Assembly: GCA_000091165.1 (NCBI GenBank)
Contig: FP565575.1
Location: 90,001-122,000, forward strand
Length of the DNA: 32,000 bases
Source: Candidatus Methylomirabilis oxygeniifera
GTDB lineage: Bacteria; Methylomirabilota; Methylomirabilia; Methylomirabilales; Methylomirabilaceae
Direction of reading: 5' to 3'
Position 1 is the first letter of the stretch. The number at the start of each line of letters is the position of its first letter. The position numbers and the translations under genes were made by a program. The notes below the pieces were generated by a model. The model was not told the DNA's origin and searched no databases. It saw only the letters and a program-made list of their open reading frames with translations. Shown here one piece after another: positions 2,227-25,674 of the stretch.

Positions 2227-2229
2227 GCC

Positions 2230-4833: not shown

Positions 4834-4855
4834 TGTGGAACCTCCTGTATGCATA

Positions 4856-5052: not shown

Positions 5053-5139
5053 CACACAATCAACGAGTTGGTGGGTGAACCATGGAACATCTCAGATCTG
5101 GCGTGGCGATTGCTCCAGGTAGATGGATCTGAAGTGGCA
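5053..5139. repeat. Direct repeat R2 (~87 bp), partner at 4013-4104
   Basis: See R1. This copy abuts the integrase remnant. Confidence 0.75.
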
Positions 5140-5979: not shown

Positions 5980-6069
5980 GTCATTGCGAGCGACCGAAGG
6001 GAGTGCGGCAATCTCATCGTAGTTGCCCCGAACGACTGTGAGATTGCTTCGGCGTCGCCTCGCAATGAC
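5980..6069. repeat. Imperfect inverted repeat / hairpin element (GTCATTGCGAG...GAGATTGC family)
   Basis: GTCATTGCGAGCGACCGAAGGGAGTGCGGCAATCTC (5980-6015) pairs imperfectly with GAGATTGCTTCGGCGTCGCCTCGCAATGAC (6040-6069). The 84-aa minus-strand ORF across it is probably just its translation. Confidence 0.5.
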
Positions 6070-6288
6070 ACGGGGGACTTTCTGAGCAATACCCCATGCG
6101 GCGACGCCGCACCACGGCGGATGAAAATGCTGGCTGAGGGAGAGTGGTGCCCGAGATGTCGGGTTACGCTGCGCTAACCTGACCTACGGCTGCTCCCGCG
6201 AGGGTCCACCTGCCATGCTGTGCCGCCGACAGAGGCGACGGTGTGAGTTCAACTGCAATATTCTGGTTGAAAGTCTGAGAAAGCGCCC

Positions 6289-6480
6289 GTCTGCGTGATA
6301 ATCCACACGACTCTCGTCGTGTATGCGAAAGTTCGCCCATTCACTCCTCGTAAGGTCACACGCACGGTTCCATCAGCATCGTGCCGATCGTTCGTTTTCT
6401 CAGCTGAGACAAGGGTTTACGAGCGCTTCTGCGACTACGACGATAGCCGTCAAAGGCGTGGCATCCCGCTTGCTAATCAT
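6289..6480 (+). promoter_or_regulatory. mxaF control region: conserved block with candidate enhancer site and sigma-54 promoter TGGCAT-cccgc-TTGCT (6459-6474)
   Basis: It aligns colinearly with 17501-17694. The blocks GTCTGCGTGATAATCCACA, CACACGCACGGTT and the -24/-12 element TGGCATCCCGCTTGCT are identical. TGCGAAAGTTCGCCCATTCACTCC (6324-6347, near-palindrome GCGAAAGTTCGC) differs from its partner at one position (G vs T). The promoter is ~170 nt upstream of ATG 6644. Confidence 0.65.
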
Positions 6481-6643
6481 ACCTCGTCGGCGTTGAGTTC
6501 AGCGCTGTTCCACGTGTAGCGGAGGAGGTTTAATGGAACAGTTTGCAGCATCGGCGCTGCGCGATCGGTGCAGGCAGATCGTATTGGGGAGTGTAAGCAG
6601 GGAAGCACGTCAAGGTGACCACAACAGGAAAGGGGGAGGAGTA

Positions 6644-8449
6644 ATGCGATTGCACATGAGGGGCGCGAGAGGCATGCTGCTTGTCGGTGGTATGCTTCTC
6701 CACTTAACTATGACATCGTCCGTGGCCTCTGCCAACGAAGAGCTCATCCGACTTGCCAAGGATGAACGCAACTGGGTGATGCAGACGAAGGACTACACCG
6801 TCCAACGATTCAGTAAGCTGGACCAGATCGATACGAGCAACGTCAAAAACTTGCAGCCGGCCTGGTCTTTCTCCACCGGCGTCCTCCACGGCCACGAGGG
6901 GGGTCCGCTCGTCGTCAACGGGATCATGTATGTCCATAGCGCATACCCTAACAACGTCTACGCGATCGATCTGGAGCATCCGGAAAAGATCATGTGGGAG
7001 TATCGGCCGAAGCAGAACCCGGCGGCTAGGGCGGTCGCGTGCTGCGATCTGGTCAACCGGGGACTGGCGTACGGTGACGGCAAGCTCATCCTGAGCACCC
7101 TGGATGGCCAGCTCATCGCTATGGACGCCAAGACCGGCAAAGTGATCTGGAATGTCGAGACGGCAGATGTCTCCGTCGGCCAGACGCAAACGCAGGCCCC
7201 CTTTGTCGTCAAGGATAAGGTGATTATCGGCTCCGCCGGCGCCGAACTCGGCGTGCGCGGCTACGTTACCGCCTTCAACCTCAAGGACGGCAAGAAGGTA
7301 TGGCGGGCCTTCGCCACCGGTCCGGACAAGGACATCCTCCTCGACAAGGATTTCAACAAGCAGAATCCCCATTACGGCCGATTCGGTCTTGGTCTCAAGA
7401 CCTGGGAGGGAGATGCCTGGAAGATCGGCGGCGGGACTAACTGGGGGTGGTATGCCTATGATCCGAAACTCGATCTGATCTATTACGGCTCCGGCAATCC
7501 GGCCCCGTGGAATGAAACGATGCGCCCTGGCGACAATAAGTGGACGATGACCATGTGGGGTCGCAATCCGGACACCGGCCTGGCCAAGTATGGCTATCAG
7601 AAGACCCCACACGATGAGTGGGACTACGCCGGTATCAACTACATGATGCTGACGGATCAGGTCATTAATGGCAAGATGACCCCCCTTGTCACTCACCCGG
7701 ATCGCAACGGGATCATCTATACCCTAAACCGGGAGACTGGAAGCCTGGTGGCCGCTGACAAGATCGATCCCAGCGTGAACTGGACGAGAAAGGTCGATCT
7801 GAAGACGGGCATAGCGATCCGGGACCCTGAATTCAGCACCCGGATGGATCATAAGGCGCGCGGCATCTGCCCCTCTGCTATGGGATATCACAACCAGGGT
7901 CTCGACTCCTACGATCCGCGCTCAGAGATCTTCTTCATGGGCGTCAATCACATCTGCATGGACTGGGAGCCGTTCATGCTTCCATATCGGGCAGGGCAGT
8001 TCTTCGTCGGCGCGACGCTGAGCATGTACCCCGGGCCTAAGGGGTATCTGGGGGAGGTCAAGGCCTATGATGTCAAGACCAACTCCATGAAGTGGGAGAA
8101 GGCTGAGAAGTTCTCCGTCTGGGGCGGCACCATGGCCACCGCCGGCAATCTCGTCTTCTACGGCACGCTTGACGGGTGGTTTAAGGCGCTCGATTCCGGT
8201 AGCGGTGAGGAGCTGTGGAAATTCAAGTTGCCCTCCGGTGTTATCGGCCATCCGATCACGTATGAGCACAACGGTAAGCAGTATGTCGCCATCTTGTATG
8301 GGGTTGGCGGCTGGCCTGGCGTCGGGCTTGTCTTTGACCTGAATGACCCCACCGCCGGCCTCGGCTCAGTCGGCGCCTTCAAGGAGTTGGCAAAATACAC
8401 CAAGATGGGCGGTGGACTCATGGTCTTTGCGCTTCCAGAGGGTCGTTGA
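6644..8449 (+). CDS. mxaF: PQQ-dependent methanol dehydrogenase large subunit, Ca-type (MxaF)
   Basis: Signal peptide [30 protein letters not shown], and GGGGGAGGAG SD before ATG 6644. Vicinal Cys pair [11 protein letters not shown]. Active-site [10 protein letters not shown] (D-Y-A at 7622-7630), which lacks the extra lanthanide-binding Asp. It is followed by mxaJGI. An in-frame ATG with its own SD exists at 6533. Confidence 0.93.
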
Positions 8450-9342
8450 TGAGGCGAGGATTAGCGCTCCTATTCGCGACCATTACGGTCGGCCCTGCGG
8501 GTTGGCTCGCCTCATCGCCGCCCGCAGGGGCCGATCAAACGACCGCGATCTCGGCGCCGCTCAAGGTCTGCTCCGCGGCTGATGAGCTGCCCTACTCCAA
8601 CGAGAAGCTCGAGGGGTTTGAGAACCGGATCGCAGTCGTCATCGGGGAGGAGTTGCGACGTCCTATCGAGCATGTCTGGTGGAAGGATCCGCGGTTTTAC
8701 ATCCGTGATCTGCTCGAAGCTGGCGCCTGTGACATCACTATAGGGATCGATGCGGGAAATCCACGAGTATTGAGCAGTCAGCCGTACTACCGCTCCGGCT
8801 ATGTTTTCATCTACCGCAAGGACAAAGGGATATCGATCTCCGACTGGAACAGCCCAATCCTGAAGACCGCCACCATTGCGGTTGTTCCCGGAACCCCAGC
8901 AGAAACGATGTTGAAGCAGATCGATCGATATTACGAGCTTTTTAACTACCTGATGTCCCTTGTCGACTACAAATCACGGCGTAACCAGTATGTGAAGTAC
9001 GATCCTGCCCGGCTCGTACAGGAGGTCATCTCGGGACGAGCCGATGTGGCGGTCCTCTGGGGCCCTTCGGCCGCCAGGTATGTCAGGCAGTCCTCTATCC
9101 CGCTCGAGATGGTAATGATTCCTGATCGTGCGACCAGAACCGATGGTGAGCCGGTTCCTCATCATTATGATACATCGCTCGGCGTCAGAAAGGAGGATCA
9201 GGGGTTGCTCAACCAACTGAATGACGCCCTTGTTCGGCGCCGTGGCGAGATTGAGACGATCCTCAAGGCAGAAGGGATTCCGGCGTTGCCGCTGACGTCG
9301 AATCGCCTTACCGCCGCCGAGGGAGGAGTAGCGCAACGATGA
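8449..9342 (+). CDS. mxaJ: MxaJ, periplasmic solute-binding-like MDH accessory protein
   Basis: The ATG overlaps the mxaF TGA (TGATG). Signal peptide, then LKVCSAADELPYSNEKLEGFENRIA...YYRSGYVFIYRK, homologous to the N-terminal domain of the gene at 19814. Position is as in canonical mxaFJGI. Confidence 0.85.
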   Translation: MRRGLALLFATITVGPAGWLASSPPAGADQTTAISAPLKVCSAADELPYSNEKLEGFENRIAVVIGEELRRPIEHVWWKDPRFYIRDLLEAGACDITIGIDAGNPRVLSSQPYYRSGYVFIYRKDKGISISDWNSPILKTATIAVVPGTPAETMLKQIDRYYELFNYLMSLVDYKSRRNQYVKYDPARLVQEVISGRADVAVLWGPSAARYVRQSSIPLEMVMIPDRATRTDGEPVPHHYDTSLGVRKEDQGLLNQLNDALVRRRGEIETILKAEGIPALPLTSNRLTAAEGGVAQR

Positions 9343-9842
9343 GCCGCCTGATTTCGTCAGCTGTCTCGCGCATTCTCGTCGCGCTGATTCTGTTCAGCCT
9401 GACGGGGTGTTCAGGGACGACGGCCGTGGCTGTGGCAGAGCCGCCGATCATGCGAAACAATATTACCGGCGAGCCGCTCGAGTTCTCGGGACTCAATGAG
9501 ACTGAGACACCGGCGGTCAAACAATTCAAAGCCACCGGCAAGAATCCGTATAACACTGATCGTGAGGCCATCGCTAAGGGGGGCGCGGTATACCTGACCG
9601 CCTGCTCGGCCTGCCACGGTCACCATGCGGAGGGCAAAATTGCACCCGCTCTTATTGACGATTATTGGACCTACCCGATGAATACGACCGATATCGGGCT
9701 CTTTTCGAGTACCTACGCCGGGCTTCAAGGAATGATGGGTCCGTCCAAGGGGCGCCTGACACAGGATGAGATCCTTCAACTCATGGCCTGGATCAGGAGT
9801 AACTATAAAGGAGACCCAGCAAAGGCGGAATGGAACCATTGA
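9339..9842 (+). CDS. mxaG: Cytochrome c-L (MxaG), electron acceptor of MDH; predicted lipoprotein
   Basis: ATGA overlap with mxaJ, and GAGGGAGGAG SD. Single heme motif CSACHGHHAEGKIAPALIDDYWTYP, typical of cytochrome cL. N-terminus ILVALILFSLTGC has a lipobox-like L-T-G-C. Confidence 0.85.
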   Translation: MSRLISSAVSRILVALILFSLTGCSGTTAVAVAEPPIMRNNITGEPLEFSGLNETETPAVKQFKATGKNPYNTDREAIAKGGAVYLTACSACHGHHAEGKIAPALIDDYWTYPMNTTDIGLFSSTYAGLQGMMGPSKGRLTQDEILQLMAWIRSNYKGDPAKAEWNH

Positions 9843-9877
9843 GGCCACACAACAACCCTTATCATAGGAGAACTTTC

Positions 9878-10162
9878 ATGGCAGCACAACGAATCGGTTT
9901 GCGTCTTTCGATCGGGCTCAGCCTTTTGGCCGCTGCATCATCGGCTGTTGCCTACGATGGGACAAAATGCAAAGAGCCCGGAGCATGCTGGGAGCCCAAG
10001 CCGGGCTATCCGGCGAGGGTTGCCGGAAGCAAGTATGATCCCAAGCATGATCCCAAGGAGGTGGCGAAACAGGAACTGGCCCACAAGGCGATGGATGAAA
10101 GGAACGAGAAACGCTGGAAGCATTTTCAAGAGACGGGTGTCTGGAAGTACGATGTGAAGTAG
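9878..10162 (+). CDS. mxaI: Methanol dehydrogenase small (beta) subunit MxaI
   Basis: After a signal peptide (…AAASSAVA), YDGTKCKEPGACWEPKPGYPARVAGSKYDPKHDP...MDERNEKRW matches the very conserved MxaI core (YDGT.CK.PG.CWEPKP.YP..V.GSKYDP.HDP). AGGAGA SD lies before ATG 9878. Confidence 0.9.
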   Translation: MAAQRIGLRLSIGLSLLAAASSAVAYDGTKCKEPGACWEPKPGYPARVAGSKYDPKHDPKEVAKQELAHKAMDERNEKRWKHFQETGVWKYDVK

Positions 10163-14108: not shown

Positions 14109-14662
14109 GCCGCAAGCGTCTTCCCTGGATCCTGGGAGCGGTCTGCCTCGTCCTGGTGATCTTCACTGTGCGAGAGGCTCAGCATTTGCGGCATTTGCAG
14201 GTGTATCAGCGGGCGATCCGGAACGGGTCCATTCTCACCCTTCCGGCAACTGCGGAGATTCCTGAGGCGACCTTTGCAAGGGCCTGGATGCTCAGTCAGA
14301 GCGGTCGGGAGCAGCAGGCCCTCATGCTGTACGAGGCTCTCGGACAGAGCCGAGATCCGGTCCTCCGGGCGCAAGCGAAGTATCAGATCGGGGCGCTCCT
14401 GCTCCGACAGGCCACCGACCTCCTGGAAGCACAAGGGCAATCGGCCGTCACAAAGGTTGCTCCACTGATTGAGATCGCCAAGGAAGCGCTTCGAGAGGTG
14501 TTGCGCCACGACAGTCGCGATCGGGAGGCCAAATACAATCTGGAACTGGCGCTCCGTTTACTTCCGGAGTTGGAACGGAGCGATCGCGCGCGCGACGAGC
14601 CGGCGAAGGAGGAAAAAGGCGATTGGACCTCTATTCCAGGTCTTCCCGAAGGAATGCCATGA
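14096..14662 (+). CDS. mxaK: MxaK-like TPR-type membrane protein (BatC-like)
   Basis: 188 aa, with GAGG SD. N-terminal TM LPWILGAVCLVLVIF followed by a helical repeat region (ALMLYEALGQSRDPVLRAQAKYQIGALLL). Call mostly by synteny. Confidence 0.6.
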   Translation: MAGVGRKRLPWILGAVCLVLVIFTVREAQHLRHLQVYQRAIRNGSILTLPATAEIPEATFARAWMLSQSGREQQALMLYEALGQSRDPVLRAQAKYQIGALLLRQATDLLEAQGQSAVTKVAPLIEIAKEALREVLRHDSRDREAKYNLELALRLLPELERSDRARDEPAKEEKGDWTSIPGLPEGMP

Positions 14663-14684
14663 TGAACGCGCCCGGAAGGATCGG

Positions 14685-16304
14685 ATGACTCCCGCGCGCG
14701 ACGATCGAAGAGGGCGTGGCGATCTACGTTTGCGGTGTCTTGTTCTGGCGTTTCTCGTGCTGGGCGTCGTGTACATCCATCCCACACGATTTATGCCCCA
14801 ACGCGTCATTCGTGCCGTCTTTGTCATCGATATCACGCAGAGTATGAATACCAGGGATGCGGCTCTTCATGGTAGTCCGGTCGATCGCCTCACTTTTACG
14901 AAGCGTACCGTTCAGGACACCATCCGATGGCTGCCATGCCGATCAGAGGTGGGACTCGCCGTCTTCACGGAGCGGCGGGTCGTCCTTCTGTTTGAGCCGC
15001 TCGAGGTCTGCGAACAGAGGGCTCTCCTGCTCTCCGCCGTGTCCGCGATCGACTGGCGAATGGCCTGGGCGGCCGACAGCCGCATCGCGGCGGGCGTCTA
15101 CGATGCGGTCACGCAGGTGACGCGGCTTGCATCACAGCCGAGGCTCCTGTTTTTCACTGACGGACAGGAGGCGCCCCCGATCATGCCGGGATTTGAGCCC
15201 CGCTTCGAAGGAAAGCCGGGGGAGGTGAATGGATTGATCATCGGGATCGGCGGGCAGACCCCTGCCGAGATTCCGAAATTCGACGAGGAGGGCCGGCTGA
15301 TCGGCCACTGGACCGCCGACGATACCGGCCGTTTCCCCAGTGTCGGGACCCCGACGCTCTCAGTCGCAGAGATGGGCACGGCAGGCGAGACGGGATCGGA
15401 TGGAGCCCTCCTTCGTAATGCGCCGCAACGCCCAAGTGAGGGCTTGCCGACTCACCTCTCCTGGCTCCATGAGACCTACCTGATGGAACTCGCGAGGACA
15501 ACAGGTCTTCAGTATATCAGGCTCAACACGCCGAATGAGCTTCGGTCTCGCCTGCTCGCCCCGCCCCTCGCGCGTACGGAGGCCGTCAGGGTCGATATGC
15601 GCCGGATCTTCGCCTTTGGCGCGCTTGTCCTCATCCTGATCGGCTATACGATCATCCCAACATTCCGATTACTTGCGGCCCCTTCCGCAACAGGTGAAGA
15701 ACGACACCTGTGGCCGCTGCCCCCGGTTCGCCCAAACGCCTTACAACCTCATGAGGAGAAAACAAGAATGAAGACACTGCTGTACTCCATAATCGGCATC
15801 GCGCTCTGCACGACCTCGGTTGCCTATGCGCACGGACCGACGCCGCAGAAGCTCGAGGAGCACATTTCTATCCAGGGACCACCCGAGCAGGTGTGGGCTG
15901 CGGTCAAAGAATTCGGTGCGCCGGCAACCTGGCATCCGATGCTGAAGCAGACCACGGCTCACGGCGGCAATACCGCAGGCCGGGCGGAACGGGTGGTGAC
16001 GTTGCCGAGCGGCGGTACGATCACCGAAGGTCTGGATGAGTACGATGAGGGACGACGCTACATGGCCTGGCGTCTGCTGAAGGAGAACAAGGAAGCGTTC
16101 CCGGTCAGCTTTTATACCGTCTCGATTGAGGTGAGGCGGGCCAATGGGGGCAGTGACGTGGAATGGTTGTCGCGATTTTATCGCGCCGATACCGGCAACT
16201 CTCCTCCCCCCGAATACAGTGATGAGGCGGCGATCAAAGCGATGACGGAGTTTGCTCAGTCGGGTCTCGAGAATCTCAAGAAGCGCATCGAAACAGAGAA
16301 GTGA
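14685..16304 (+). CDS. mxaL: MxaL (vWA-domain membrane protein); the reading frame continues without a stop codon into the mxaD coding region
   Basis: N-terminal TM LRCLVLAFLVLGVVYI, MIDAS motif VFVIDITQSMN, and C-terminal TM FAFGALVLILIGYTIIP. This would normally end MxaL near nt ~15680, but no stop occurs before 16304. Confidence 0.7.
   Translation: MTPARDDRRGRGDLRLRCLVLAFLVLGVVYIHPTRFMPQRVIRAVFVIDITQSMNTRDAALHGSPVDRLTFTKRTVQDTIRWLPCRSEVGLAVFTERRVVLLFEPLEVCEQRALLLSAVSAIDWRMAWAADSRIAAGVYDAVTQVTRLASQPRLLFFTDGQEAPPIMPGFEPRFEGKPGEVNGLIIGIGGQTPAEIPKFDEEGRLIGHWTADDTGRFPSVGTPTLSVAEMGTAGETGSDGALLRNAPQRPSEGLPTHLSWLHETYLMELARTTGLQYIRLNTPNELRSRLLAPPLARTEAVRVDMRRIFAFGALVLILIGYTIIPTFRLLAAPSATGEERHLWPLPPVRPNALQPHEEKTRMKTLLYSIIGIALCTTSVAYAHGPTPQKLEEHISIQGPPEQVWAAVKEFGAPATWHPMLKQTTAHGGNTAGRAERVVTLPSGGTITEGLDEYDEGRRYMAWRLLKENKEAFPVSFYTVSIEVRRANGGSDVEWLSRFYRADTGNSPPPEYSDEAAIKAMTEFAQSGLENLKKRIETEK
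15768..16304 (+). CDS. mxaD: MxaD-like periplasmic SRPBCC-fold protein (in frame with mxaL, with its own SD and signal peptide)
   Basis: GAGGAGAA lies 7 nt before ATG 15768. Signal peptide MKTLLYSIIGIALCTTSVAYA-HG. A ~155-aa mature domain has the SRPBCC-like pattern VWAAVKEFGAPATWHPMLK...ITEGLDEYDE. Location at the end of the mxa operon fits mxaD. Confidence 0.7.
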   Translation: MKTLLYSIIGIALCTTSVAYAHGPTPQKLEEHISIQGPPEQVWAAVKEFGAPATWHPMLKQTTAHGGNTAGRAERVVTLPSGGTITEGLDEYDEGRRYMAWRLLKENKEAFPVSFYTVSIEVRRANGGSDVEWLSRFYRADTGNSPPPEYSDEAAIKAMTEFAQSGLENLKKRIETEK

Positions 16305-16307: not shown

Positions 16308-17309
16308 ATGTGTCGGCGTTCACGTCTGTTCCGTCTTGCATCGGCGGCGCTTCTGTTTGGCGTCGGCACCACGGCATCGGTACGGGCCGAGTATGCCTAC
16401 ATTACCAACCAGGGCGACGACAGCGTCTCAGTCGTGAATATCGAGAAAGGGGAAGTCATCGCGACCATCGCGGTAGCCGATGCGCCTGTGGGTGTGGCGA
16501 CCACACCGGACGGTACGCATCTGTACATCACGCACCCCGAGGCGGGACTCATCTCGGAAATCGATACCGTGACACGAACGGTAGTAAAGACCATCGACAC
16601 CGGGGGGCAGCCATTTGGTATTGCGGTTGACGACACCGCCCCGGTCGCCGGCAACAACGCGCAGACCCGCCGGTTACTCTTTGTCACTGATTGGAGCCGC
16701 AACGCCGTTATGACTGTAGACCCGGTGAGAGGAGTGGTGATCGATCTGATCCATGCTGGAAAGTCGCCCGCCGGGATCGCCCTCGACCGAAGGGCGCGGC
16801 GCGTATTTGTCGCTAACCGCGAGAGCAATACGCTCACGGTGCTGGATGCGGATGTGCCGCGCAGGTATGCGGACATACCGACAGGCCGGGCGCCTTTCGC
16901 TGTGGCGCTGGTGCCCAACGGGGAGCGCGTGTACGTCGGCAATGTGCAGAGCGGGGAACTGACCGTGATTGACGCGAAAGCGCTCGATGTGGTTGCAACG
17001 GTCAAGGTCGGCCGCTTTCCTTACGGCATCGCCGTTACGCCTGACGGCGCGCGCGTCGTCGTTGCCAACCAGCAGGACCACAACATCACGATAGTGGATG
17101 CCTTGTCGCTGCGTACGGTCGGCAACATCCGTGTCGGTCGCCATCCCGACGGGGTGGATATCACCGGTGACGGCAGCCATGCACTGATCGCAAACTGGTT
17201 CGATGACTCGATTTCCATTATCGATCTCAGCACACTGAAGGAGCGAACGCGAGTCAAGGCTGGAAAGGGGTGCCGCGCCTTTGGGTCATTTATCGTGCGT
17301 AATCGATAG
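16308..17309 (+). CDS. Secreted seven-bladed YVTN beta-propeller protein (PQQ-catabolism-associated type), paralogue 1
   Basis: Signal peptide ...TTASVRA-EY. Seven repeats of the pattern YVTN/.....V.VID........I.VG..P.G.A..PDG..(V)YV. It starts 3 nt after the mxaD stop. Paralogue at 22338-23297. Confidence 0.8.
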   Translation: MCRRSRLFRLASAALLFGVGTTASVRAEYAYITNQGDDSVSVVNIEKGEVIATIAVADAPVGVATTPDGTHLYITHPEAGLISEIDTVTRTVVKTIDTGGQPFGIAVDDTAPVAGNNAQTRRLLFVTDWSRNAVMTVDPVRGVVIDLIHAGKSPAGIALDRRARRVFVANRESNTLTVLDADVPRRYADIPTGRAPFAVALVPNGERVYVGNVQSGELTVIDAKALDVVATVKVGRFPYGIAVTPDGARVVVANQQDHNITIVDALSLRTVGNIRVGRHPDGVDITGDGSHALIANWFDDSISIIDLSTLKERTRVKAGKGCRAFGSFIVRNR

Positions 17310-17328
17310 AGTGGACGCGACGCATGGG

Positions 17329-17476
17329 ATCGGTGGTGGGGGCTATTGCATGAGGCAGGTGTAATTCCACACACACCCCGACGTTCCTCAAGCGGTATCC
17401 CGACATCGAATGGGCTGTAAGTGCTTGAATAACCTGATGATCGGAGCCTGCCGCAGCAGTTGGCATAGTCATTGCT
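17329..17476 (+). promoter_or_regulatory. Sigma-54 regulatory module, copy B, ending in TGGCAT-agtca-TTGCT (17461-17476)
   Basis: 148 bp, ~77% identical to 517-662 (the kinase upstream region). It has a near-consensus -24/-12 element and lies ~340 nt upstream of the xoxF ATG, immediately upstream of the second promoter block. Confidence 0.6.
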
Positions 17477-17500
17477 TAATTAGCAAACTTAGGAGAGCCT

Positions 17501-17694
17501 GTCTGCGTGATAATCCACAGGCCTACGGTCGAGGTGTGCGAAATTTCGCCCATTCACTCCATCGCCCAGCCACACGCACGGTTGTGCGCTCAACGTGTCG
17601 ATCGTCAGTTTCCCCAGCCGCGACAAGACTTTGCCTGCGCTCCTGCAACTGCATTGATGGCCATCGAGGGTGTGGCATCCCGCTTGCTGATACC
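17501..17694 (+). promoter_or_regulatory. xoxF proximal control region: palindrome GCGAAATTTCGC (17538-17549) plus sigma-54 promoter TGGCAT-cccgc-TTGCT (17673-17688)
   Basis: It is colinear with the mxaF upstream block 6289-6480 (see that feature). The -24/-12 element is identical to the mxaF one. The palindrome lies ~135 bp upstream of GG(-24). Confidence 0.65.
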
Positions 17695-17813
17695 CAGTCG
17701 CTTGTGACAGTCCGGATACTCGTCTCGCCTACTTTGGGGAAGGGAGTGGAAGGACAGATCGGGGCGATAGTTTTCAGTAAGCGGTTCAACACACAGAGGA
17801 GGGAGTGCAGATC

Positions 17814-19718
17814 ATGGGGAAGCCGTTATCCGGTTCTACGATGGCAGGCATGATCGCCGGCGCGCTCATGCTGGCTATCGCTTCTGGCAGTGCGCTCGCC
17901 AATGAAGAGATCGTTCGGGCGAGCAAAAATCCTGATCTGTGGCCCGCGCCGGGCCGGGATCTGGCCATGACGCGTCATAGCCCGCTCAAAGACATCAATA
18001 CCGCCAACGTCGGGAAGCTGCAGATGATGTGGTCGCAATCCACCGGTGCGTTGCGTGGCCATCAGGGTCAGCCGATCGTGGTCGAGGTGGCTGGAACGCC
18101 GATGATGTTTTTTGTGAGTCCCTGGCCGAATATCGTGCAGGCGTTGGACCTGTCCGATCCTGATCATCCGAAGCAGGTGTGGAACTACAAGAAGAAAACC
18201 GACCGTGATGAGTTGGCGGTGACTCGCGCGTGTTGCGATACGATTAACCGGGGCCTGAACTATGCCGACGGCAAGGTGGTCTTTCATACCCTCGACGGAT
18301 ATGTCATCGCGCTGGACGCCAAGACCGGCAAAGAGATTTGGACGGTCAAGCATGCCTGGTCGGATAAGGGTGAAACGATTACCGGCCCGACGCTGATCGC
18401 CGAGAATAAGGTCATCATCGGGTTCGGCGGCGACGAGTTCGCCGCGCGCGGCCGGGTGACCGCGTATGACCTGAAGACCGGCAAGCAGGTGTGGAACTGC
18501 CACAGCACCGGGTCCGACAAGGATGTGTGCCTGACCCCGGAGACCAACAAGGCCAATCCGCATTACGGGACGTACGGCAAGAACCTCGGCATGATCACCT
18601 ATCCCAATGACGAGTGGAAGATCGGCGGTGGCGCGCCCTGGGAATGGTTTACCTATGACCCGGAGTTGAGGCTCGTGTACGTGCCGACGGGCAACCCCGG
18701 GCACTGGAGTCCATCCTATCGGTGCGGTGAAACCGGCGCAAACCTGACTCACGAAAAGTGTAACCAATACGACCCCGAGTTGCGCAGCGGCAGATGGGAC
18801 AACAAGTGGGCGATGACGATCTTCGCCAGAAAGATCGATACCGGCGAGGCGGTATGGGCGTACCAGATGACCACCTTCGACCAGTGGGACTACGACGGCG
18901 TCAACGAACCCGTCCTGGTGGACATGAAGGTCGACGGCAAAATGCGCAAGACGCTGGTCCACTTCGACCGTAACGGGTTTGCCTATGTGCTTGACCGTGC
19001 CGATGGGACTCTGTTGCGCGCGCATAAGTTTTTCCCCCTCAACTGGGCCGAGAAGGTCGACCTCAAGACCGGCCGTCCGGTGAAGATCAAGGAGCATTCG
19101 CCCTTCGCTCGTCATGTCAGCACGCAGGTCTGCCCGTCTTCGCTTGGCGCCAAGAACCAACAACCGATTGCGATCGATCCCAAAGAACCGCACATCGCCT
19201 ATGTGGCGACCAACTGGTGGTGCATGGAATACGAGCCGCAAGAGCGCACCCACACCCAGCAGGGCATGCTCTATGTCTTTGCGAACGTCTTCACGTATCC
19301 GATCGAGAAGGGTGTCGCGAGCAAGGTGCAGAAGTTCAACGTGCTGACCGGCGAGACCGAGTGGGCTATTCCGGATGCCTATCCGGACTGGGGCGGCATG
19401 CTGACGACCGATGGCGACCTACTGTTCTACGGCAGCCTGAGCGGAGATTTTCGCGCGGTCGATCGGAAGTCCGGCAAGGTCCTGTGGAGCCGTAAACTGG
19501 GCTCCGGCATCATCGGCAACCCGATCACGTACAAGATCAAGGGCAAGCAGTACGTGTCGGTATTGGCCGGTATCGGCGGCTGGATCGGTCTGCCGGTGAC
19601 GGCCGAGCTCGACTTTGACGACAAGTATGGAGCCATCGGCGCCACCGCTATGGCCAAGCTGACCGGGCTCGATAAGATTCCGCAGGGTGGCGTGCTCTAC
19701 ACCTTCCGTATCGATTGA
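17814..19718 (+). CDS. xoxF: PQQ-dependent methanol dehydrogenase, lanthanide-type (XoxF), copy 1
   Basis: GGAGGG SD lies 10 nt before ATG 17814. The GTG at 17805 is too close to the SD. Signal peptide ...ASGSALA-NEE, vicinal Cys TRACCDTINRG. Active-site FDQWDYDGVNE (D-Y-D at 18888-18896) carries the additional Asp diagnostic of Ln-dependent XoxF. No small-subunit gene follows. Confidence 0.93.
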   Translation: MGKPLSGSTMAGMIAGALMLAIASGSALANEEIVRASKNPDLWPAPGRDLAMTRHSPLKDINTANVGKLQMMWSQSTGALRGHQGQPIVVEVAGTPMMFFVSPWPNIVQALDLSDPDHPKQVWNYKKKTDRDELAVTRACCDTINRGLNYADGKVVFHTLDGYVIALDAKTGKEIWTVKHAWSDKGETITGPTLIAENKVIIGFGGDEFAARGRVTAYDLKTGKQVWNCHSTGSDKDVCLTPETNKANPHYGTYGKNLGMITYPNDEWKIGGGAPWEWFTYDPELRLVYVPTGNPGHWSPSYRCGETGANLTHEKCNQYDPELRSGRWDNKWAMTIFARKIDTGEAVWAYQMTTFDQWDYDGVNEPVLVDMKVDGKMRKTLVHFDRNGFAYVLDRADGTLLRAHKFFPLNWAEKVDLKTGRPVKIKEHSPFARHVSTQVCPSSLGAKNQQPIAIDPKEPHIAYVATNWWCMEYEPQERTHTQQGMLYVFANVFTYPIEKGVASKVQKFNVLTGETEWAIPDAYPDWGGMLTTDGDLLFYGSLSGDFRAVDRKSGKVLWSRKLGSGIIGNPITYKIKGKQYVSVLAGIGGWIGLPVTAELDFDDKYGAIGATAMAKLTGLDKIPQGGVLYTFRID

Positions 19719-19813
19719 TCGTGTCACGATCCCGAATGCGCTGTCGATCTGATGGTTGCCGGCGGGTGGCATCAGTCCACCCGCCGGTGCCGTCGTATGT
19801 GAGGTCGATTCGT

Positions 19814-21532
19814 ATGTCGTTGTTGAAGCAGTGCGGAACCGTACTCCTCGCCTGCGCGCTCAGCGTCACGGTCGCGCCTGCGTTTGTAATCGCCGACATC
19901 GGGCATGATGGGGGCGCGCCCAGCGTCAACGTTGCGCCTGCCTCTGCAACCGAGGGCAGCGCGTTGCTGCGGGTGTGCGCCGATCCCGGAAATATGCCGC
20001 TGTCGAATAATAAGGGAGAAGGCTTCCAGAACAAGATCGCAGAGATCCTCGCGCAGGCGATGGGCGCGCAGCTTACGTATTACTACCGACCGTATCTGGA
20101 GCGAGGCCTCACCAGCCAAACCGTGGATGCCGATCGGTGTGACATGCTGATGGATATACCGTCGGGCGAGGAACGTCTGCTGACCACCAAGCCGGTCTAT
20201 CGCAGTACCTTTGTGCTGGTCTACCGCAACGACAAAGGATACGCCTTCAAGGGTCTGGACGACCCCAGATTACTCAACGACCTCAAGGTCGGCGTCTTCC
20301 AGCATTCCGCGGCGCGGCAGGTATTGCAGGAGCGCGGCCTCGCACGCGGCAACACCATTGTGCATGCCGTCAGCTACGATACCGATGTCAACCCCGAACG
20401 GCAGCCGTCACGGCAGATCCGACAGGTGATCGACGGCCGACTGGATGTAGCTGCCATCTGGGGGCCGATGGCCGGCTGGTACAAGGCCGTCGAAGGCGCG
20501 CCGCTGACGATCCTGCCAATGAACCTCATGGATGATGCCACGCCATTGGAGTTTGAGTTGAGCGTGGGCATGCGGAGGGGCGCCGAGGAGTTGAAGACCA
20601 GGATCGAACAGGCACTGGTGCGCGAGCAGGCGCGTATCCGCCGGACATTGGAGGAGTACGGGGTGCCGCTGGTCGAATGCGCGCGGTGTCTGGTGTCGGG
20701 CACGCTGCCTTCGCATGGGCCTTACACGCCGCCCGCGCCCGTTACGGCAACGTCCCCACCGGCGGCGGCGCCCGACATGACGCAGGTGGCCTTGCAGACC
20801 GACGCCGCGCTGGCCGGCGGCGGGACGCTCGATGAGGAGTTGCACTACGCAATCCTGGCCAGTCAGCCCAAGCGGGCCGACTACCTGATCGCGCGTGGTG
20901 CCGATGTTAACGGCCGGGATGCGCAGAACCAGACGCCGCTGATGACGGCGGTCATGCACGGTCACGAACCGGTAGTCGCTCTCTTGCTGAACCGCAAGGC
21001 CGATCCGAACAGGGCGGACAACGACGGCTGGACCGCCCTGATGCGCGCCGTCCAGCGCGACGACCCTACCATGGTGCGCCTGCTGGCCGCACATGGCGCC
21101 GACCCCGAAGCGATCAATCGGAACGGCATGAGCGCGCTCACCATGGCGGCGCTGCACGGCAAGAGCCTAGCGGCAGCCGCCCTGCTGGAAAGCGGGGCAA
21201 AGGTTGACAGTGCGATCGGGACGGCGCGCTACACGCCGCTGATGATTTCGGTGTTCTCCGGCACGCAGCCTGTCGCACAGGCACTGTTGCGATATGGCGC
21301 GCAGGTCAACGCCCGTAACGGCGGCGGTCTGACGGCGTTGATGATCGCCGCGGCCTCTAATCGGCCAGAGATGGTTGCGCTGTTGCTCGGCGCAGGCGCG
21401 GATGCCGCACTCAAGGACGCAGAGGGGAGGACCGCGCTGGCGCTGGCGCGAGAGCGCGATGCCGCCACTGTCGTCAGCCTGCTCACGGGAAGGTCGGCCG
21501 TAGGCAGTGCGGCGAAGCCTGCTGCGCAGTAG
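19814..21532 (+). CDS. xoxJ: XoxJ/MxaJ-like periplasmic binding-fold domain fused to a C-terminal ankyrin-repeat domain
   Basis: ATG 19814 has GAGG 9 nt upstream. Signal peptide MSLLKQCGTVLLACALSVTVAPA. LLRVCADPGNMPLSNNKGEGFQNKIA...VYRSTFVLVYRND aligns with MxaJ (8449-9342). A Pro/Ala linker (~20700-20777) follows. Then come ~6 ankyrin repeats (~20831-21486), e.g. QTPLMTAVMHGHEPVVALLLNRKADPN and GLTALMIAAASNRPEMVALLLGAGADAA. Confidence 0.85.
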   Translation: MSLLKQCGTVLLACALSVTVAPAFVIADIGHDGGAPSVNVAPASATEGSALLRVCADPGNMPLSNNKGEGFQNKIAEILAQAMGAQLTYYYRPYLERGLTSQTVDADRCDMLMDIPSGEERLLTTKPVYRSTFVLVYRNDKGYAFKGLDDPRLLNDLKVGVFQHSAARQVLQERGLARGNTIVHAVSYDTDVNPERQPSRQIRQVIDGRLDVAAIWGPMAGWYKAVEGAPLTILPMNLMDDATPLEFELSVGMRRGAEELKTRIEQALVREQARIRRTLEEYGVPLVECARCLVSGTLPSHGPYTPPAPVTATSPPAAAPDMTQVALQTDAALAGGGTLDEELHYAILASQPKRADYLIARGADVNGRDAQNQTPLMTAVMHGHEPVVALLLNRKADPNRADNDGWTALMRAVQRDDPTMVRLLAAHGADPEAINRNGMSALTMAALHGKSLAAAALLESGAKVDSAIGTARYTPLMISVFSGTQPVAQALLRYGAQVNARNGGGLTALMIAAASNRPEMVALLLGAGADAALKDAEGRTALALARERDAATVVSLLTGRSAVGSAAKPAAQ

Positions 21533-21600
21533 CGAGTCTGGAAACCTGGGACGATTTTCTGAGCATAGCCCATGTGTCACCGGTACACCACGGCGCATGA

Positions 21601-21690
21601 AAACCCCCTTAATCCCCCTTTACGAAAGGGGGAGGCATTGAGGCGTATCAGGAATATCCCCCCCTTTACGAAAGGGGGGTCAGGGGGGTT
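21601..21690. repeat. Two tandem copies of a GC-hairpin unit (CCCCCTTTACGAAAGGGGG)
   Basis: Hairpin 1 is at 21614-21632 and hairpin 2 at 21659-21679 (CCCCCCTTTACGAAAGGGGGG). They lie in the 200-bp gap between xoxJ-ank and xoxG. No clean U-tract follows. Confidence 0.55.
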
Positions 21691-21732
21691 TGTCTGAAGT
21701 TGAACGCTATTTTCTAAGGAAGGAGTCGAACC

Positions 21733-22332
21733 GTGACGTTTCGCAATGTTGGCAGCATCGCCGTAATGAGCATCGCCTTCCTCTCCGCCTGCGGGACCGC
21801 CGGCACAACGGCGCAACCGGTCGCCGCGCCGGATCGGACGCAGCAGCCTGCTCCGCCCACGCCGGCCGAACCTGCGGCGGTCGGATCGACATCGGCGGTA
21901 CAGACGATCACCGCCCCTGCCGTGCCCGCCGGTCTCGACGGTCGGCCCATCGACCGCACCAATGCCAGCACGCCAGGCTCACTCAAGAATCCGTATGCCA
22001 ATGCGACTGAAGAGATCATCGCGCAGGGCCGTGAACGGTACCTGGCCTATGGCTGCAACGGCTGCCACGGCGGCGGAGGCGGGGGCGGTATGGGGCCACC
22101 GTTGTCCAACGAGGTCTGGGTCTACGGCAGCGATGACGACACGCTGTTCCGGTTGACGGCGATCGGGAGCGTCGAGTTGCAAAAGCTTGGGTACGCGCGT
22201 AAGAGCCGCGAGGGAGTCGTCGCTCCGATGTTGCCCTATGGTCAACTGATCAAAACTGAGGATGAACTGTGGAAGATGATCGCCTTTATCCGCACCACCT
22301 ATCGTGGCGATCCGTCGCGCAAGAACTGGTGA
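21733..22332 (+). CDS. xoxG: XoxG-type c-type cytochrome (methanol-metabolism related), predicted lipoprotein with a long Pro/Ala tether
   Basis: GTG start with AGGAAGGAG 7 nt upstream. Lipobox FLSAC. A ~75-aa low-complexity linker (PAPPTPAEPAA...). The heme motif CNGCHGGGGGGGMGPPL, with a glycine run after CxxCH, is what I recall as characteristic of XoxG-family cytochromes. Confidence 0.85.
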   Translation: MTFRNVGSIAVMSIAFLSACGTAGTTAQPVAAPDRTQQPAPPTPAEPAAVGSTSAVQTITAPAVPAGLDGRPIDRTNASTPGSLKNPYANATEEIIAQGRERYLAYGCNGCHGGGGGGGMGPPLSNEVWVYGSDDDTLFRLTAIGSVELQKLGYARKSREGVVAPMLPYGQLIKTEDELWKMIAFIRTTYRGDPSRKNW

Positions 22333-22337
22333 TCCTC

Positions 22338-23297
22338 ATGAAGAAGACGGCGCTGTGTGTTGTCGTGTTCGCTTATCTGGTTACGCGAGGAGCTTCGGCA
22401 TCGGCCGAGTCTCGGGCGTATGTGACCAACGAAGCGTCCAACGATCTGTCCGTCATCGATACTGCCTCCCGACGGGTGGTCGCCACCATCAAGGTTGGGG
22501 ATCGACCTCGAGGCGTAGCCGTGTCCCCGGATGGCAGCCGCGTCTATATCGCGAACGCGAACTCCAACAACCTGACGGTCATCGATACGGCTACCCTCAC
22601 GGTGAAGGCGACGGTTCCGGCTGGGATCGAACCGGAGGGCGATCCGGAAGGGATCGCCGTGACCCCGGATGGAAAGCAACTCTACGTCGTCAACGAAAAT
22701 CCCGGCACCGTCTCCGTGATCGATACGGCCACCCATCAGCTCGTTGCGACAGTAACGGTAGGGGTGGAGCCGGAAACGGTTGCCGTGAGTCCCGATGGGC
22801 GATGGGTCTACGTCACCAATGAAACCTCCCACGATGTCCACGTCATCGACACTTCCGCCGATCGTGTCATCGCCAAGATCAAGGTGGGCGCCAACCCCCG
22901 TGGGGTGAGTTTTACGCCCGATGGGAAGCGGGCCTATGTGGGATGCGAGCGCGACGGGACGGTCTCCGTGATCGACACGGCTGCCCGCCGGGTGATCGCC
23001 ACCATCCCGGTAGGGGAGCGTCCGGTGGGGACGGTCGTGAGCCACGACGGGAAAAAGGTCTATGTGGCCCACGGTCGGTCGTATGAGGTGTGGGTCCTGG
23101 ATACGAGGACCCATCAGGTGCTGACCAAGATCCCGACGCAGGAGCGGTCATGGTGGGTCGCGTTGACCCCGGATGGAAGGGAGCTGTACGTCACGGTCCA
23201 CGGTGGCGGCCGCGTGGCGGTCATCGACACCACTCACGACCGGCTGCTTACAACCATACCGGCAGGGACGAAGCCCTGGGGCGTGGCGGTCAGGTAA
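22338..23297 (+). CDS. Secreted seven-bladed YVTN beta-propeller protein, paralogue 2
   Basis: ATG lies 5 nt after the xoxG stop. Signal peptide MKKTALCVVVFAYLVTRGASASA. Repeats include YVTNEASNDLSVIDTASRRVVATIKVGDRPRGVAVSPDGSRVYIAN and similar. Confidence 0.8.
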   Translation: MKKTALCVVVFAYLVTRGASASAESRAYVTNEASNDLSVIDTASRRVVATIKVGDRPRGVAVSPDGSRVYIANANSNNLTVIDTATLTVKATVPAGIEPEGDPEGIAVTPDGKQLYVVNENPGTVSVIDTATHQLVATVTVGVEPETVAVSPDGRWVYVTNETSHDVHVIDTSADRVIAKIKVGANPRGVSFTPDGKRAYVGCERDGTVSVIDTAARRVIATIPVGERPVGTVVSHDGKKVYVAHGRSYEVWVLDTRTHQVLTKIPTQERSWWVALTPDGRELYVTVHGGGRVAVIDTTHDRLLTTIPAGTKPWGVAVR

Positions 23298-23328
23298 ACC
23301 ACCGGTCCGCATGTATGGAGGGTGCACA

Positions 23329-25674
23329 ATGAGAGTGAGGGTGCTCTGGTACGTGGCGATAGGGTTGATCTGGCTCGTGGCTGGGATGATGCCGCGCGCG
23401 TGGGCGGAAACGGATCAGTCGGAACCGGGGGAAAGTCCCCTCAAGGCCTTTGAGCTCCCGGCGGTGGAGGTGATCGAGCATACCCCTCTGTCGGCTCTCG
23501 GTATTCCCATCGGGAAATACCCGGGGAACGTGCAGGAGATCACGTCTGAGGAGATCGAGAGTCAGAACCCGCTTGATATCTCGGAAATGTTCTACCGGAA
23601 CCTCAGCTCGGTCAATATCAATGCTGCTCAGAACAACCCTTGGCAGAATGATGTGACCTACCGTGGTTTTCTCGCCTCGCCCCTGACCGGCAGCCCCATC
23701 GGGCTGTCCGTGTATCTGGACGGCATGCGCTTCAACGACGGATTCGGGGAAACGATGAACTGGGACCTGACTCCCCAGTCCGCCATCGCGGAAATCGACG
23801 TGATTCCCGGTTCCAACCCTGTCTTCGGTTTGAATACTCTCGGTGGCGCGCTTAACATCCGCACCAAGCGCGGCTTCGATTTGCAGGGTACGGAAGTCGA
23901 AGCGTCTGGAGGATCCTTCGGACGCTGGGCTGTGGAGGCGGAGCACGGCGCTGTGCACGGTCCGTTTGACTTGTATCTGACATTCAACACCCTGGACGAA
24001 AGCGGCTGGCGCGAGCACTCGCCGAGTGAGTTGCGACAATTATTCAGTAGAATCGGGTGGAAAACGGAGCGCACTGACCTCAACCTCAACTACATCTGGG
24101 CCGACAACGATCTCATCGGCAACGGCTTCGTCCCGGAGAGTACACTGGCGAGAGACCGTGATGCCGTCCATACCTTCCCTGATCGGACCGGGAATCGTAT
24201 GCACCTGCTCAACCTGCGCGGGAGTCGTCGGATCACGGATGCCCTGCTGCTCTCTGGGAACGGGTTCTATCGCTACTACAAGCGTAAGACCCTGAATGGG
24301 GATGCCGAGGTCGGCTGTGTGGATGACGCCACCGGGGCGGGGGTCGTCGACGCCGGCGGCCGTCCGCTGCACCTTGGGCTGTGCGAGGGTTCGGCCGTCG
24401 GATTCTTTGATGAGGATGGCAATCCGCTGGCCGGAGCACTGGAGCGCGAAGCCGAGGGTGAGGACCGGACGACGAGAACCCGCACCCATGACTTTGGCGG
24501 AACGTTCCAACTCTCGCATAGCGGCGCCATCATGGGCCGTACCAACCGGCTGACGGTTGGATTTGCCTTCGATCGCCACCAAAGCCATTATAACCAGCGC
24601 GAGGCCGAATCCGAGCTGGTGCCGGACGGCAACAGTGTGGGCACGGAACGCGAGGGACCCTTCGAGACGGAGGTCAACGTCGGCACCCGGCAGGATAATG
24701 CCGGTTTCTATATTACCAACACCTTCGATCTCGCCGAGCGTCTGGCGCTGACGTTGTCCGGGCGGTATCAGCATGTGGACATCAACATACGCGACCGGTC
24801 TGGCGAGAACGACGATCTTAACGGCCACCATACATTCGAGCGCTTCAGTCCTGCCGTAGGATTGACGTTTCAAGCGCTGAAGAACGCCACGCTCTTCTTC
24901 TCCTATAGCGAGGGCTTTCGCGCCCCCACTCCGGCGGAACTGACGTGCGCCGATGAGAACGATCCGTGCAATCTGCCGAATGCGTTTGTCGCCGATCCGC
25001 CGCTCAACAAGGTCGTCGCCCGCACGTACGAGTTCGGCGCGCGCGGCCGTCTGCCGATCGGAAATGGGGTGCGGTGGAACGCCGGCTTCTTCCGCACCGA
25101 CTTAAGCAACGACATCCTGTTTACCGTCGTTGAAACCGGCGGGGCCGGCTTTTTCCAGAATGTTGACGCGACGCGCCGCCAGGGCGTCGAGGTCGGTGTA
25201 CAGGGTCGGTGGAAGCGATTGAAATACTTTGGAAACTACGCGTACGTTGATGCCACCTACCAGTCCGACGTGACGCTTGCGAGCGTGACGGACCCCGGCG
25301 GCGTGCGGGTCAAGGATGGCGATGTGATTCCCGGCATCCCAAAGCACAATGCCAAGGTTGGGGCAGAGTATGCCCTGCTGGACAATCTCTGGATCGGCGG
25401 CAACGTGATCGCCGTGTCCGGCAACTATCTCCGCGGCGACGACGGCAACAACCAAAGCAAGACGGATGCCTACGCGATACTGAATCTTCACGCCCGCTAC
25501 GTGCCGATCAAGAACCTGGAGATCTGGACGCGCATCGACAACGTGACCGATACCGACTACGAGACGGCAGGCACGCTCAATTTTAATGCCTTCGGCAGCC
25601 CCATCGCCGTTGAGCGATTCGTCGCCCCGGGATCGCCCGTTGCCGGCTGGGTCGGTGTCAAGTTACGCTTCTGA
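23329..25674 (+). CDS. TonB-dependent outer-membrane receptor (full length), last gene of the xoxF operon
   Basis: GGAGGG SD, ATG 31 nt after the YVTN stop. Signal peptide ...MMPRAWA-ET, TonB-box-like ELPAVEVIE, plug domain (VQEITSEEIESQNPLDISEMF...TYRGF). A long beta-barrel ends in VGVKLRF*. Confidence 0.9.
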   Translation: MRVRVLWYVAIGLIWLVAGMMPRAWAETDQSEPGESPLKAFELPAVEVIEHTPLSALGIPIGKYPGNVQEITSEEIESQNPLDISEMFYRNLSSVNINAAQNNPWQNDVTYRGFLASPLTGSPIGLSVYLDGMRFNDGFGETMNWDLTPQSAIAEIDVIPGSNPVFGLNTLGGALNIRTKRGFDLQGTEVEASGGSFGRWAVEAEHGAVHGPFDLYLTFNTLDESGWREHSPSELRQLFSRIGWKTERTDLNLNYIWADNDLIGNGFVPESTLARDRDAVHTFPDRTGNRMHLLNLRGSRRITDALLLSGNGFYRYYKRKTLNGDAEVGCVDDATGAGVVDAGGRPLHLGLCEGSAVGFFDEDGNPLAGALEREAEGEDRTTRTRTHDFGGTFQLSHSGAIMGRTNRLTVGFAFDRHQSHYNQREAESELVPDGNSVGTEREGPFETEVNVGTRQDNAGFYITNTFDLAERLALTLSGRYQHVDINIRDRSGENDDLNGHHTFERFSPAVGLTFQALKNATLFFSYSEGFRAPTPAELTCADENDPCNLPNAFVADPPLNKVVARTYEFGARGRLPIGNGVRWNAGFFRTDLSNDILFTVVETGGAGFFQNVDATRRQGVEVGVQGRWKRLKYFGNYAYVDATYQSDVTLASVTDPGGVRVKDGDVIPGIPKHNAKVGAEYALLDNLWIGGNVIAVSGNYLRGDDGNNQSKTDAYAILNLHARYVPIKNLEIWTRIDNVTDTDYETAGTLNFNAFGSPIAVERFVAPGSPVAGWVGVKLRF

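Follow-up and report, generated by a model that had tools for sequence, protein, structure and literature searches.

The 32,000-nt stretch of the Candidatus Methylomirabilis oxygeniifera genome considered here (contig FP565575.1, positions 90,001 to 122,000; "the window", in whose numbering all coordinates are given) carries a gene for a lanthanide-type methanol dehydrogenase dependent on pyrroloquinoline quinone (PQQ), XoxF, followed by a gene whose product joins a XoxJ-type accessory domain to a C-terminal ankyrin domain, and then by a gene for a c-type cytochrome resembling XoxG (Table 1). The middle gene, XoxJ::ankyrin, is the subject of this analysis, and residue numbers refer to its product unless another protein is named. 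Its enclosing open frame runs uninterrupted from 19715 to 21532 on the plus strand in the open reading frame (ORF) listing of the window; the start ATG at 19814 is preceded by GAGG 9 nt upstream and coincides with the start Met of a homologue that is 87% identical. A first-pass annotation of the same DNA had proposed one protein comprising XoxJ and ankyrin parts, and had suggested a search of the linker for a stop or frameshift. Neither is present in the linker region of the assembled ORF, the 572-residue frame is continuous, and collinear homologues in many genomes conserve the fusion. The region 19814-21532 is a genuine single-protein fusion of a XoxJ-type half and an ankyrin half.

A signal-peptide-like N-terminus was recognised by eye, with its cleavage site placed from the sequence, and hydrophobic N-termini are found in all homologues compared. 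No internal hydrophobic segment occurs in the fusion, so that, the one predicted signal peptide being N-terminal, the ankyrin domain would lie in the periplasm, as the earlier annotation had supposed; the protein is predicted to be exported to the compartment in which published work places its relatives XoxJ and MxaJ. An AlphaFold2 (AF2) model built from an alignment of 56 homologues has a mean predicted local distance difference test score (pLDDT) of 80, falling to ~30 over the signal peptide. In it the binding-protein domain and a short beta-rich junction are modelled with confidence, the linker is disordered over 307-319, and ankyrin helices occupy 322-561. Its predicted template modelling score (pTM) of 0.49 leaves the halves without a fixed mutual position, and neither supports nor excludes intramolecular docking; a Foldseek search of the PDB returned no solved structure spanning both. 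Conservation, expressed as the fraction agreeing with the majority residue among 71 sequences non-redundant at 80% identity, is 0.68 in the J domain, 0.77 in the junction (residues 283-306), 0.26 in the linker and 0.56 in the ankyrin domain.

The assignment of the N-terminal half to the MxaJ/XoxJ family, made from the sequence at the outset, is borne out, with one refinement of the label. Residues 52-287 align with positions 2-232 of the 232-position NCBIfam model for quinoprotein-dehydrogenase-associated MoxJ-like binding proteins, TIGR03871, and the score of 243.3 bits exceeds the cutoff of 212.15, whereas the MoxJ/MxaJ equivalog TIGR03870 fails (126.3 bits, cutoff 258.1); the domain is hence XoxJ-like, and not MoxJ proper. 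Its Pfam SBP_bac_3 score of 21.4 is under the cutoff of 26.4. The closest solved relative by sequence is XoxJ of Methylorubrum extorquens (6onp; E 1e-38, residues 46-287), the next PDB matches being the MxaJ entries 5sv6 and 9ism_B (E 1e-23 to 1e-28), and Foldseek superposes the N-terminal half on 6onp with TMt 0.86 and a root-mean-square deviation of 3.3, and on MxaJ with TMt 0.73-0.74. The MxaJ peptide quoted for comparison in the first-pass annotation is that of the window's own MxaJ (8446-9342). Two loops are under particular constraint: loop 91-103 (YRPYLERGLTxQT) is invariant in the family, yet disordered in the AF2 model, and loop 186-198, equivalent to L8 of MxaJ, is nearly invariant, with the family consensus SHDADLxPERQP ([SH]-D-[AT]-D-x-x-P-E-x-Q-P). 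In MxaJ the L8 motif R161-N162-x-Y164 makes hydrogen bonds and a salt bridge to the roof sheet of MxaF (PMC12276312). The corresponding segment of the fusion reads SYDTDVNPERQP, not RNQY, while the MxaJ encoded in the window has RRNQY, and from this difference it follows that the details of client binding differ as well. Both loops are compatible with a client-binding face that has been retained but is suited to another client.

Between this domain and the linker lies the junction motif (Table 1), the best-conserved segment of the whole protein, in which C289, C292, H301 and Y304 are invariant in the family alignment and pLDDT reaches ~92 (residues 281-300). It is lacking in plain XoxJ and MxaJ, both of which end at 'VPL' and whose alignments to the fusion stop at residues 287-288. 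The pattern C-x2-C...S-H-G-x-Y could form a disulfide knuckle or a small metal site.

The C-terminal half is a canonical ankyrin solenoid by Pfam, AF2 and Foldseek alike, although its repeats number seven and not the "about six" first counted; the span originally given to them, 20831-21486 (residues 340-557), agrees with the model. Repeats begin near residues 333, 369, 402, 435, 469, 502 and 535, and the model contains seven helix pairs with a period of 33-34 residues and pLDDT of 85-96. All Pfam ankyrin models match residues ~340-561, with E from 1e-37 to 1e-22, including Ank_2 (126.9 bits, cutoff 27.3, E 4.5e-37), Ank (114.3 bits, cutoff 21.1, E 7.5e-34) and Ank_4 (110.2 bits, cutoff 22.7), and Foldseek gives TMt 0.84-0.88 to seven-repeat ankyrin proteins (DARPins, AnkB R8-14). 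Finger-tip residues of repeats 3, 5 and 6 (D402, D404, G405, W406, Y473, N502, G504 and G505) are conserved while the helix-surface positions 13 and 14 of the repeats vary, which suggests one conserved partner, bound along the fingers.

The rarity that the first-pass annotation implied for this architecture does not hold. Searching 5.8 billion proteins by word index gave 2112 matches at E <= 1e-10, of which the best 120 were listed; at least 120 clusters at 90% identity are collinear fusions of 522-579 residues, covering 88-100% of the query at 49-87% identity. A search of representatives at 50% identity, whose top 150 matches are dominated by giant eukaryote-like ankyrin proteins and give no family total, showed at least 10 separate clusters of the complete fusion, recognised by coverage in one stretch and reaching down to 40% identity. 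Among genomes sampled at one per species, 319 relatives were found; the best 80 all cover residues ~50-557 and belong to Methylophilaceae (including Methylotenera mobilis 13 and Methylophilus aquaticus), Methylophaga, Nevskiales (Solimonas aquatica DSM 25927, Hydrocarboniphaga, Nevskia), Steroidobacteraceae, Rhodocyclaceae and Rhodanobacteraceae; overall, hosts of the fusion include Verrucomicrobia and Alpha-, Beta- and Gammaproteobacteria. Distances in the two halves co-vary across the family (r = 0.92 pairwise, partial r = 0.66). The fusion is also already annotated, automatically, under TIGR03871 with precomputed Pfam ANK hits, and proteins from Methylotenera and relatives carry the name [quoted passage not shown]. 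Methylophilaceae genes beside the mmol_2048-type xoxF were named xoxJ and xoxG in a transcriptome paper of 2013 (PMC3728764); Mfla_2313, which sits between the La-induced XoxF Mfla_2314 and the XoxG Mfla_2312 (PMC9988556), is listed elsewhere as an "extracellular solute-binding protein" (PMC3023750). As regards rarity, the first-pass annotation is thus largely refuted on its own terms, the architecture being common and already annotated. Consistent with the same annotation, which knew of no description of a XoxJ-ankyrin architecture, no mention of the ankyrin half of XoxJ was found in the open-access papers and bioRxiv preprints searched, a provisional result within that scope. The fusion represents a large, automatically annotated family that has been overlooked experimentally.

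The genomic company of this family is highly consistent. The order XoxF-like dehydrogenase, fusion, cytochrome c is observed in every one of the best-80 loci that has upstream sequence, 72 loci hold all three genes in that order, the lanthanide motif WDYDG is present in each of the 72 upstream dehydrogenases that are complete, and a cytochrome c gene lies 3' of the fusion in 85 of 87 loci. The XoxF of the window finds its top PDB match in 7o6z, XoxF1 of Methylacidimicrobium thermophilum AP8 (820 bits), and shares 63-76% identity with the XoxFs encoded ahead of the fusion elsewhere; because of these levels of identity we infer that it belongs to the XoxF1/XoxF4 group, XoxF4 being the Methylophilaceae clade (PMC8546591). 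Viewed from the side of the enzyme, the fusion is the next gene in seven of seven XoxF1/XoxF4-type genes sampled (AP8, source of 7o6z, Xanthomonas, Hyphomicrobium, Bradyrhizobium, Coralloluteibacterium and two metagenome contigs). In AP8, xoxF1 is followed by a 538-residue protein that is 44.6% identical to residues 52-572 of the fusion and has the same junction motif, and a cytochrome c gene comes next. It follows that XoxJ::ankyrin is the default XoxJ of the XoxF1/XoxF4 group. On metagenome contig JGI 3300082588, two fusion-type genes of ~600 codons occur within 6 kb (in the numbering of that locus, 1-467, running off its edge, and 6050-7852), which suggests tandem xox clusters, each having its own XoxJ::ankyrin.

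All XoxFs encoded beside the fusion share an insertion of 12-23 residues, YRC..THE[EK]CN..DNKW, which is absent from MxaF, XoxF2 (4mae) and XoxF5 (6oc5). It is a candidate docking site for the ankyrin domain. In the window's XoxF it occupies residues ~307-330 of the enzyme (18720-18800), and across relatives it usually contains two Cys; in the window and in Methylophilaceae it is 9-11 residues longer than in Nevskiales, Steroidobacteraceae and AP8.

For the function of the fusion, MxaJ is the natural guide, as the only family member with a demonstrated mechanism. MxaJ binds folded apo-MxaF and draws a roof-sheet loop away from the active site, which lets PQQ bind, whereupon MxaI displaces MxaJ and ties the lid down; the authors of that work expect XoxJ to act like MxaJ (PMC12276312). 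The structures (9ism/9iso, 5sv6) and the fusion have a homologous fold, and the mechanism is assumed here to carry over; unlike the fusion, MxaJ has no ankyrin domain, grips MxaF through R-N-x-Y and is released by MxaI, which XoxF enzymes lack. With modest confidence, we favour a reading in which the fusion is the XoxJ of a xoxF-xoxJ::ank-xoxG operon, an MxaJ-like chaperone equipped with an ankyrin domain as a second protein-binding surface, for which XoxF is the likeliest partner. By analogy with MxaJ, the J domain is probably a chaperone for insertion of PQQ and lanthanide into the adjoining XoxF; more tentatively, and with somewhat less than even conviction, the ankyrin solenoid is assigned a second contact with XoxF, one that would raise affinity or control release and lid closure. 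Both proposals stem from the lack of MxaI in XoxF systems. Once exported to the periplasm, the J domain would bind newly folded apo-XoxF and keep the active-site lid open, such that PQQ and then the lanthanide could enter, after which it would depart. The solenoid, carried on a flexible linker of ~15 residues behind the rigid, invariant CxxC...H junction, would present the second surface, and its partner would be XoxF, with either protomer of the dimer conceivable and the clade-specific loop insertion as a possible site of engagement. Such a contact would supply extra affinity, or a holdfast, where no MxaI displaces the chaperone or stabilizes the lid.

A mirror-tree comparison of 73 triplets (XoxF, fusion, XoxG), using partial correlations of distances, yields r = 0.42 for the J domain with XoxF, 0.14 for the ankyrin domain with XoxF and -0.04 for the ankyrin domain with XoxG, and hence leans slightly toward XoxF over XoxG as the ankyrin partner. 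Several considerations weigh against the chaperone proposal as a whole. This mirror-tree signal is weak for either partner, and the co-occurrence of the XoxF insertion with the fusion is in effect a single phylogenetic event and thus weak evidence. The choice of XoxF as ankyrin partner is reached indirectly, and the chaperone role of any XoxJ is itself extrapolated from MxaJ. The MxaJ motif that contacts MxaF is not conserved in the fusion, and the low pTM provides no fixed geometry between the domains.

Of the alternatives, the one that survives best is a scaffold for electron transfer, in which the ankyrin domain would hold the XoxG near XoxF, as a non-covalent counterpart of a covalent arrangement already on record. 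Cytochrome cGJ of Methylacidiphilum fumariolicum SolV is reportedly a XoxG-XoxJ fusion (Versantvoort 2019, cited in PMC8546591). It is similar to the present fusion in that a XoxJ domain is naturally joined to a second module in a XoxF system, and would indicate that XoxJ tolerates permanent tethering to a partner; it is dissimilar in having haem c as the joined domain and in belonging to a XoxF2-type system, where the XoxF1/XoxF4 systems have a generic protein-binding solenoid. The near-constant cytochrome gene downstream of the fusion agrees with a scaffold, as does the unusual nature of that cytochrome: the window's protein is not of the MxaG type (TIGR03872 MoxG, 45 bits against a cutoff of 148), and the cytochrome of the 2013 Methylophilaceae paper was described as "not homologous to mxaG" (PMC3728764). 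The ankyrin-XoxG partial correlation is nevertheless close to zero, and contacts between cytochromes and their enzymes are normally transient and electrostatic; we regard a scaffold as rather unlikely. A bolder extension of the chaperone proposal, which we would rate as a long shot, is that the ankyrin domain makes XoxJ a stable partner of XoxF, clamped on a clade-specific surface such as YRC..THExCN, where it would replace the lid and release role of MxaI or nucleate a periplasmic XoxF-XoxJ-XoxG supercomplex; if true, this would explain maturation of XoxF and retention of PQQ without a small subunit.

Two further possibilities seem improbable. In the first, the fusion would be a delivery protein whose J domain carries a small ligand such as PQQ or a lanthanide chelate, with the ankyrin domain docking on a TonB-dependent receptor, TonB or a YVTN beta-propeller. 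The family name of TIGR03871 is in keeping with such a role, and in the window the genes for a receptor, TonB and a propeller follow shortly after the fusion, with receptor and propeller also near the AP8 cluster and several others. The proximity of receptor and propeller is inconsistent, however, unlike that of XoxF and the cytochrome; of the ORFs scanned in the window, none encodes an ABC permease or ATPase, leaving the gene without an adjacent ABC transporter; and characterized MxaJ and XoxJ act on the dehydrogenase rather than on a transporter. Propeller and receptor are thus the poorer candidates for the ankyrin partner, and the propeller, which accompanies the fusion in many other genomes but not in all, is for that reason the weakest of the three partners (XoxF, XoxG, propeller) that the first-pass annotation had put forward. 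In the second, to which we attach a similarly low probability, the solenoid would fold onto the J domain and mask or gate its client-binding face until a signal releases it. The short linker, the invariant junction and the strong co-evolution of the two domains (partial r = 0.66) would suit such a gate, but co-evolution is expected of two halves of one protein regardless, and the AF2 model leaves the domains undocked, with a linker pLDDT <50. Finally, an artefact, in which adjacent xoxJ and ankyrin genes were merged by a frameshift or an error of sequencing, assembly or gene calling, was rejected as having a negligible probability, given the continuous frame, the conservation of the collinear architecture in more than 100 independent assemblies from four bacterial classes, complete genomes included, and a junction that is the protein's best-conserved part.

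Comparison with characterized systems sets the favoured chaperone reading in context. XoxJ of M. extorquens AM1 is periplasmic, as is predicted for the fusion, and is likewise encoded between xoxF and xoxG; unlike the fusion, that protein is a single domain of ~280 residues ending 'VPLL', with neither the CxxC...H junction nor ankyrin repeats, and it serves a XoxF5-type enzyme rather than one of the XoxF1/XoxF4 type. A periplasmic ankyrin-like protein of Pseudomonas aeruginosa, also called AnkB, is reported to be needed for full activity of the KatB catalase. By description only, it resembles the fusion as an ankyrin protein outside the cytoplasm supporting a cofactor-containing enzyme; it differs in being small, stand-alone and unrelated to PQQ enzymes. 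PedG of Pseudomonas putida, which shares with the N-terminal half of the fusion the TIGR03871 family, is a plain periplasmic binding protein whose transporter was not identified (PMC12997753). The name of that family covers the N-terminal half of the fusion and not its ankyrin half.

Table 1. Features of the XoxJ::ankyrin gene, the xox locus and the neighbouring mxa cluster, in window coordinates
Feature	Position	Strand	Basis or remarks
XoxJ::ankyrin fusion, coding sequence	19814..21532	+	Single ORF, 572 aa + stop; full-length collinear homologues
Predicted Sec-type signal peptide	19814..19894	+	Residues 1-27: K5, hydrophobic core 8-25, A-x-A-like sites APA/VIA
XoxJ/MxaJ-type periplasmic-binding-protein (type II) domain	19961..20677	+	Residues 50-288; TIGR03871, 6onp, Foldseek
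Junction motif GVPLVEC-x2-C-[LVI]VSG-x-LPSHG-x-Y	20660..20731	+	Residues 283-306; family-specific
Pro/Ala-rich flexible linker	20732..20776	+	Residues 307-321; AF2 pLDDT <50 at 307-319
Ankyrin domain	20777..21496	+	N-cap helix 322-334 and seven repeats, residues 322-561
Sigma-54 -24/-12-like element TGGCATCCCGCTTGC	17673..17687	+	Upstream of xoxF; pattern match
Lanthanide-type PQQ methanol dehydrogenase XoxF (putative XoxF1/XoxF4 type)	17805..19718	+	TIGR03075 564 bits; WDYDG
GC-rich stem-loop	19750..19794	+	In 95-nt xoxF-fusion gap; RNA fold -46 kcal/mol, z = -3.07; no T-tract after
c-type cytochrome, XoxG-like	21733..22332	+	Pfam Cytochrom_C, CBB3; lipobox LSAC and Pro/Ala tether
YVTN beta-propeller, PQQ-catabolism-associated type	22269..23297	+	TIGR02276 repeats 300 bits; TIGR03866 268 against cutoff 287
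MxaF	6533-8449	+	WDYAG motif; TIGR03075 701 bits; calcium-type cluster
MxaJ	8446-9342	+	TIGR03870 322 bits
MxaG	9339-9842	+	mxa cluster
MxaI	9830-10162	+	Pfam MDH beta subunit
MoxR, DUF58 and VWA accessory genes	up to 16304	+	Downstream of MxaI

The remainder of the xox locus presents several features of its own. The XoxG-like cytochrome has a Pro/Ala-rich tether of ~60 residues, and a run of seven Gly directly follows its CNGCH haem motif. The earlier description of this cytochrome as tethered holds for the window's protein, which carries a lipobox, but was rejected as a general feature, a lipobox-like motif being present in only 13 of 73 XoxG orthologues. The true start of the propeller is likely the ATG at 22341, just past the xoxG stop, and the ORF of the TonB-dependent receptor (23173-25674) overlaps the propeller by 125 nt, the receptor itself probably starting further downstream than the listed ORF; receptor and then TonB protein are encoded 3' of the propeller. 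A second YVTN propeller lies at 16308-17309, between the mxa and xox clusters. The stem-loop in the gap between xoxF and the fusion may set a high XoxF:XoxJ ratio, as an mRNA-stabilizing or attenuating element.

Upstream of xoxF, the sigma-54 element recurs as an identical 15-mer upstream of mxaF (at 6459), and the ~100 bp preceding the two genes (6380-6480 and 17594-17690) are ~78% identical. Since matches to the sigma-54 pattern in the window are not above chance (3 against 2.0 expected), the argument for this element rests on its position and on the conserved block of ~100 bp around it. Within 17200-23400, neither a sigma-70-like promoter nor a plus-strand terminator was found. The element probably drives the xoxF-J-G operon, and the shared upstream block with its 15-mer suggests that the calcium-type and lanthanide-type methanol dehydrogenase operons answer to one sigma-54 activator system. 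Genes for a histidine kinase and a sigma-54 response regulator occupy 757-3606; Methylacidimicrobium AP8 has this pair ahead of its xoxF1. Between these regulator genes and mxaF, remnants of mobile elements (4233-5393) coincide with a fall in GC to 55%, and comprise a PIN-domain toxin (4233-4637, minus strand), an overlapping small antitoxin-like ORF (4630-4854, minus strand) and what is left of a tyrosine recombinase, its C-terminal part (5163-5393). At the far end of the mxa cluster, the MxaL-like VWA ORF (14469-16304, 611 aa as listed) contains a C-terminal SRPBCC/Polyketide_cyc2 domain (residues 460-608, E 7e-26), and tblastn matches to it in other loci span only the VWA part of ~280 residues. 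MxaD of other methylotrophs has an SRPBCC-type fold, and the ORF may be a MxaL-MxaD fusion or two genes merged in the ORF list.

The fusion bears on how lanthanide methanol dehydrogenases acquire PQQ and metal and on the role of XoxJ in that process, given that the MxaJ mechanism of 2025 depends on MxaI, a subunit that XoxF lacks. The designation "putative ABC transporter substrate-binding protein" under which databases list the fusion is misleading. A XoxJ of this type, with a dedicated docking domain, serves a large and environmentally important group of XoxF enzymes that extends through Methylophilaceae, Methylophaga, Nevskiales, Steroidobacteraceae, Xanthomonas, Hyphomicrobium, Bradyrhizobium and Methylacidimicrobium. 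The fusion offers an experimental handle on the maturation of XoxF in systems where the client enzyme has been crystallized (7o6z) or the host is genetically tractable, and heterologous production of XoxF1/4 enzymes may need the correct, full-length accessory protein.

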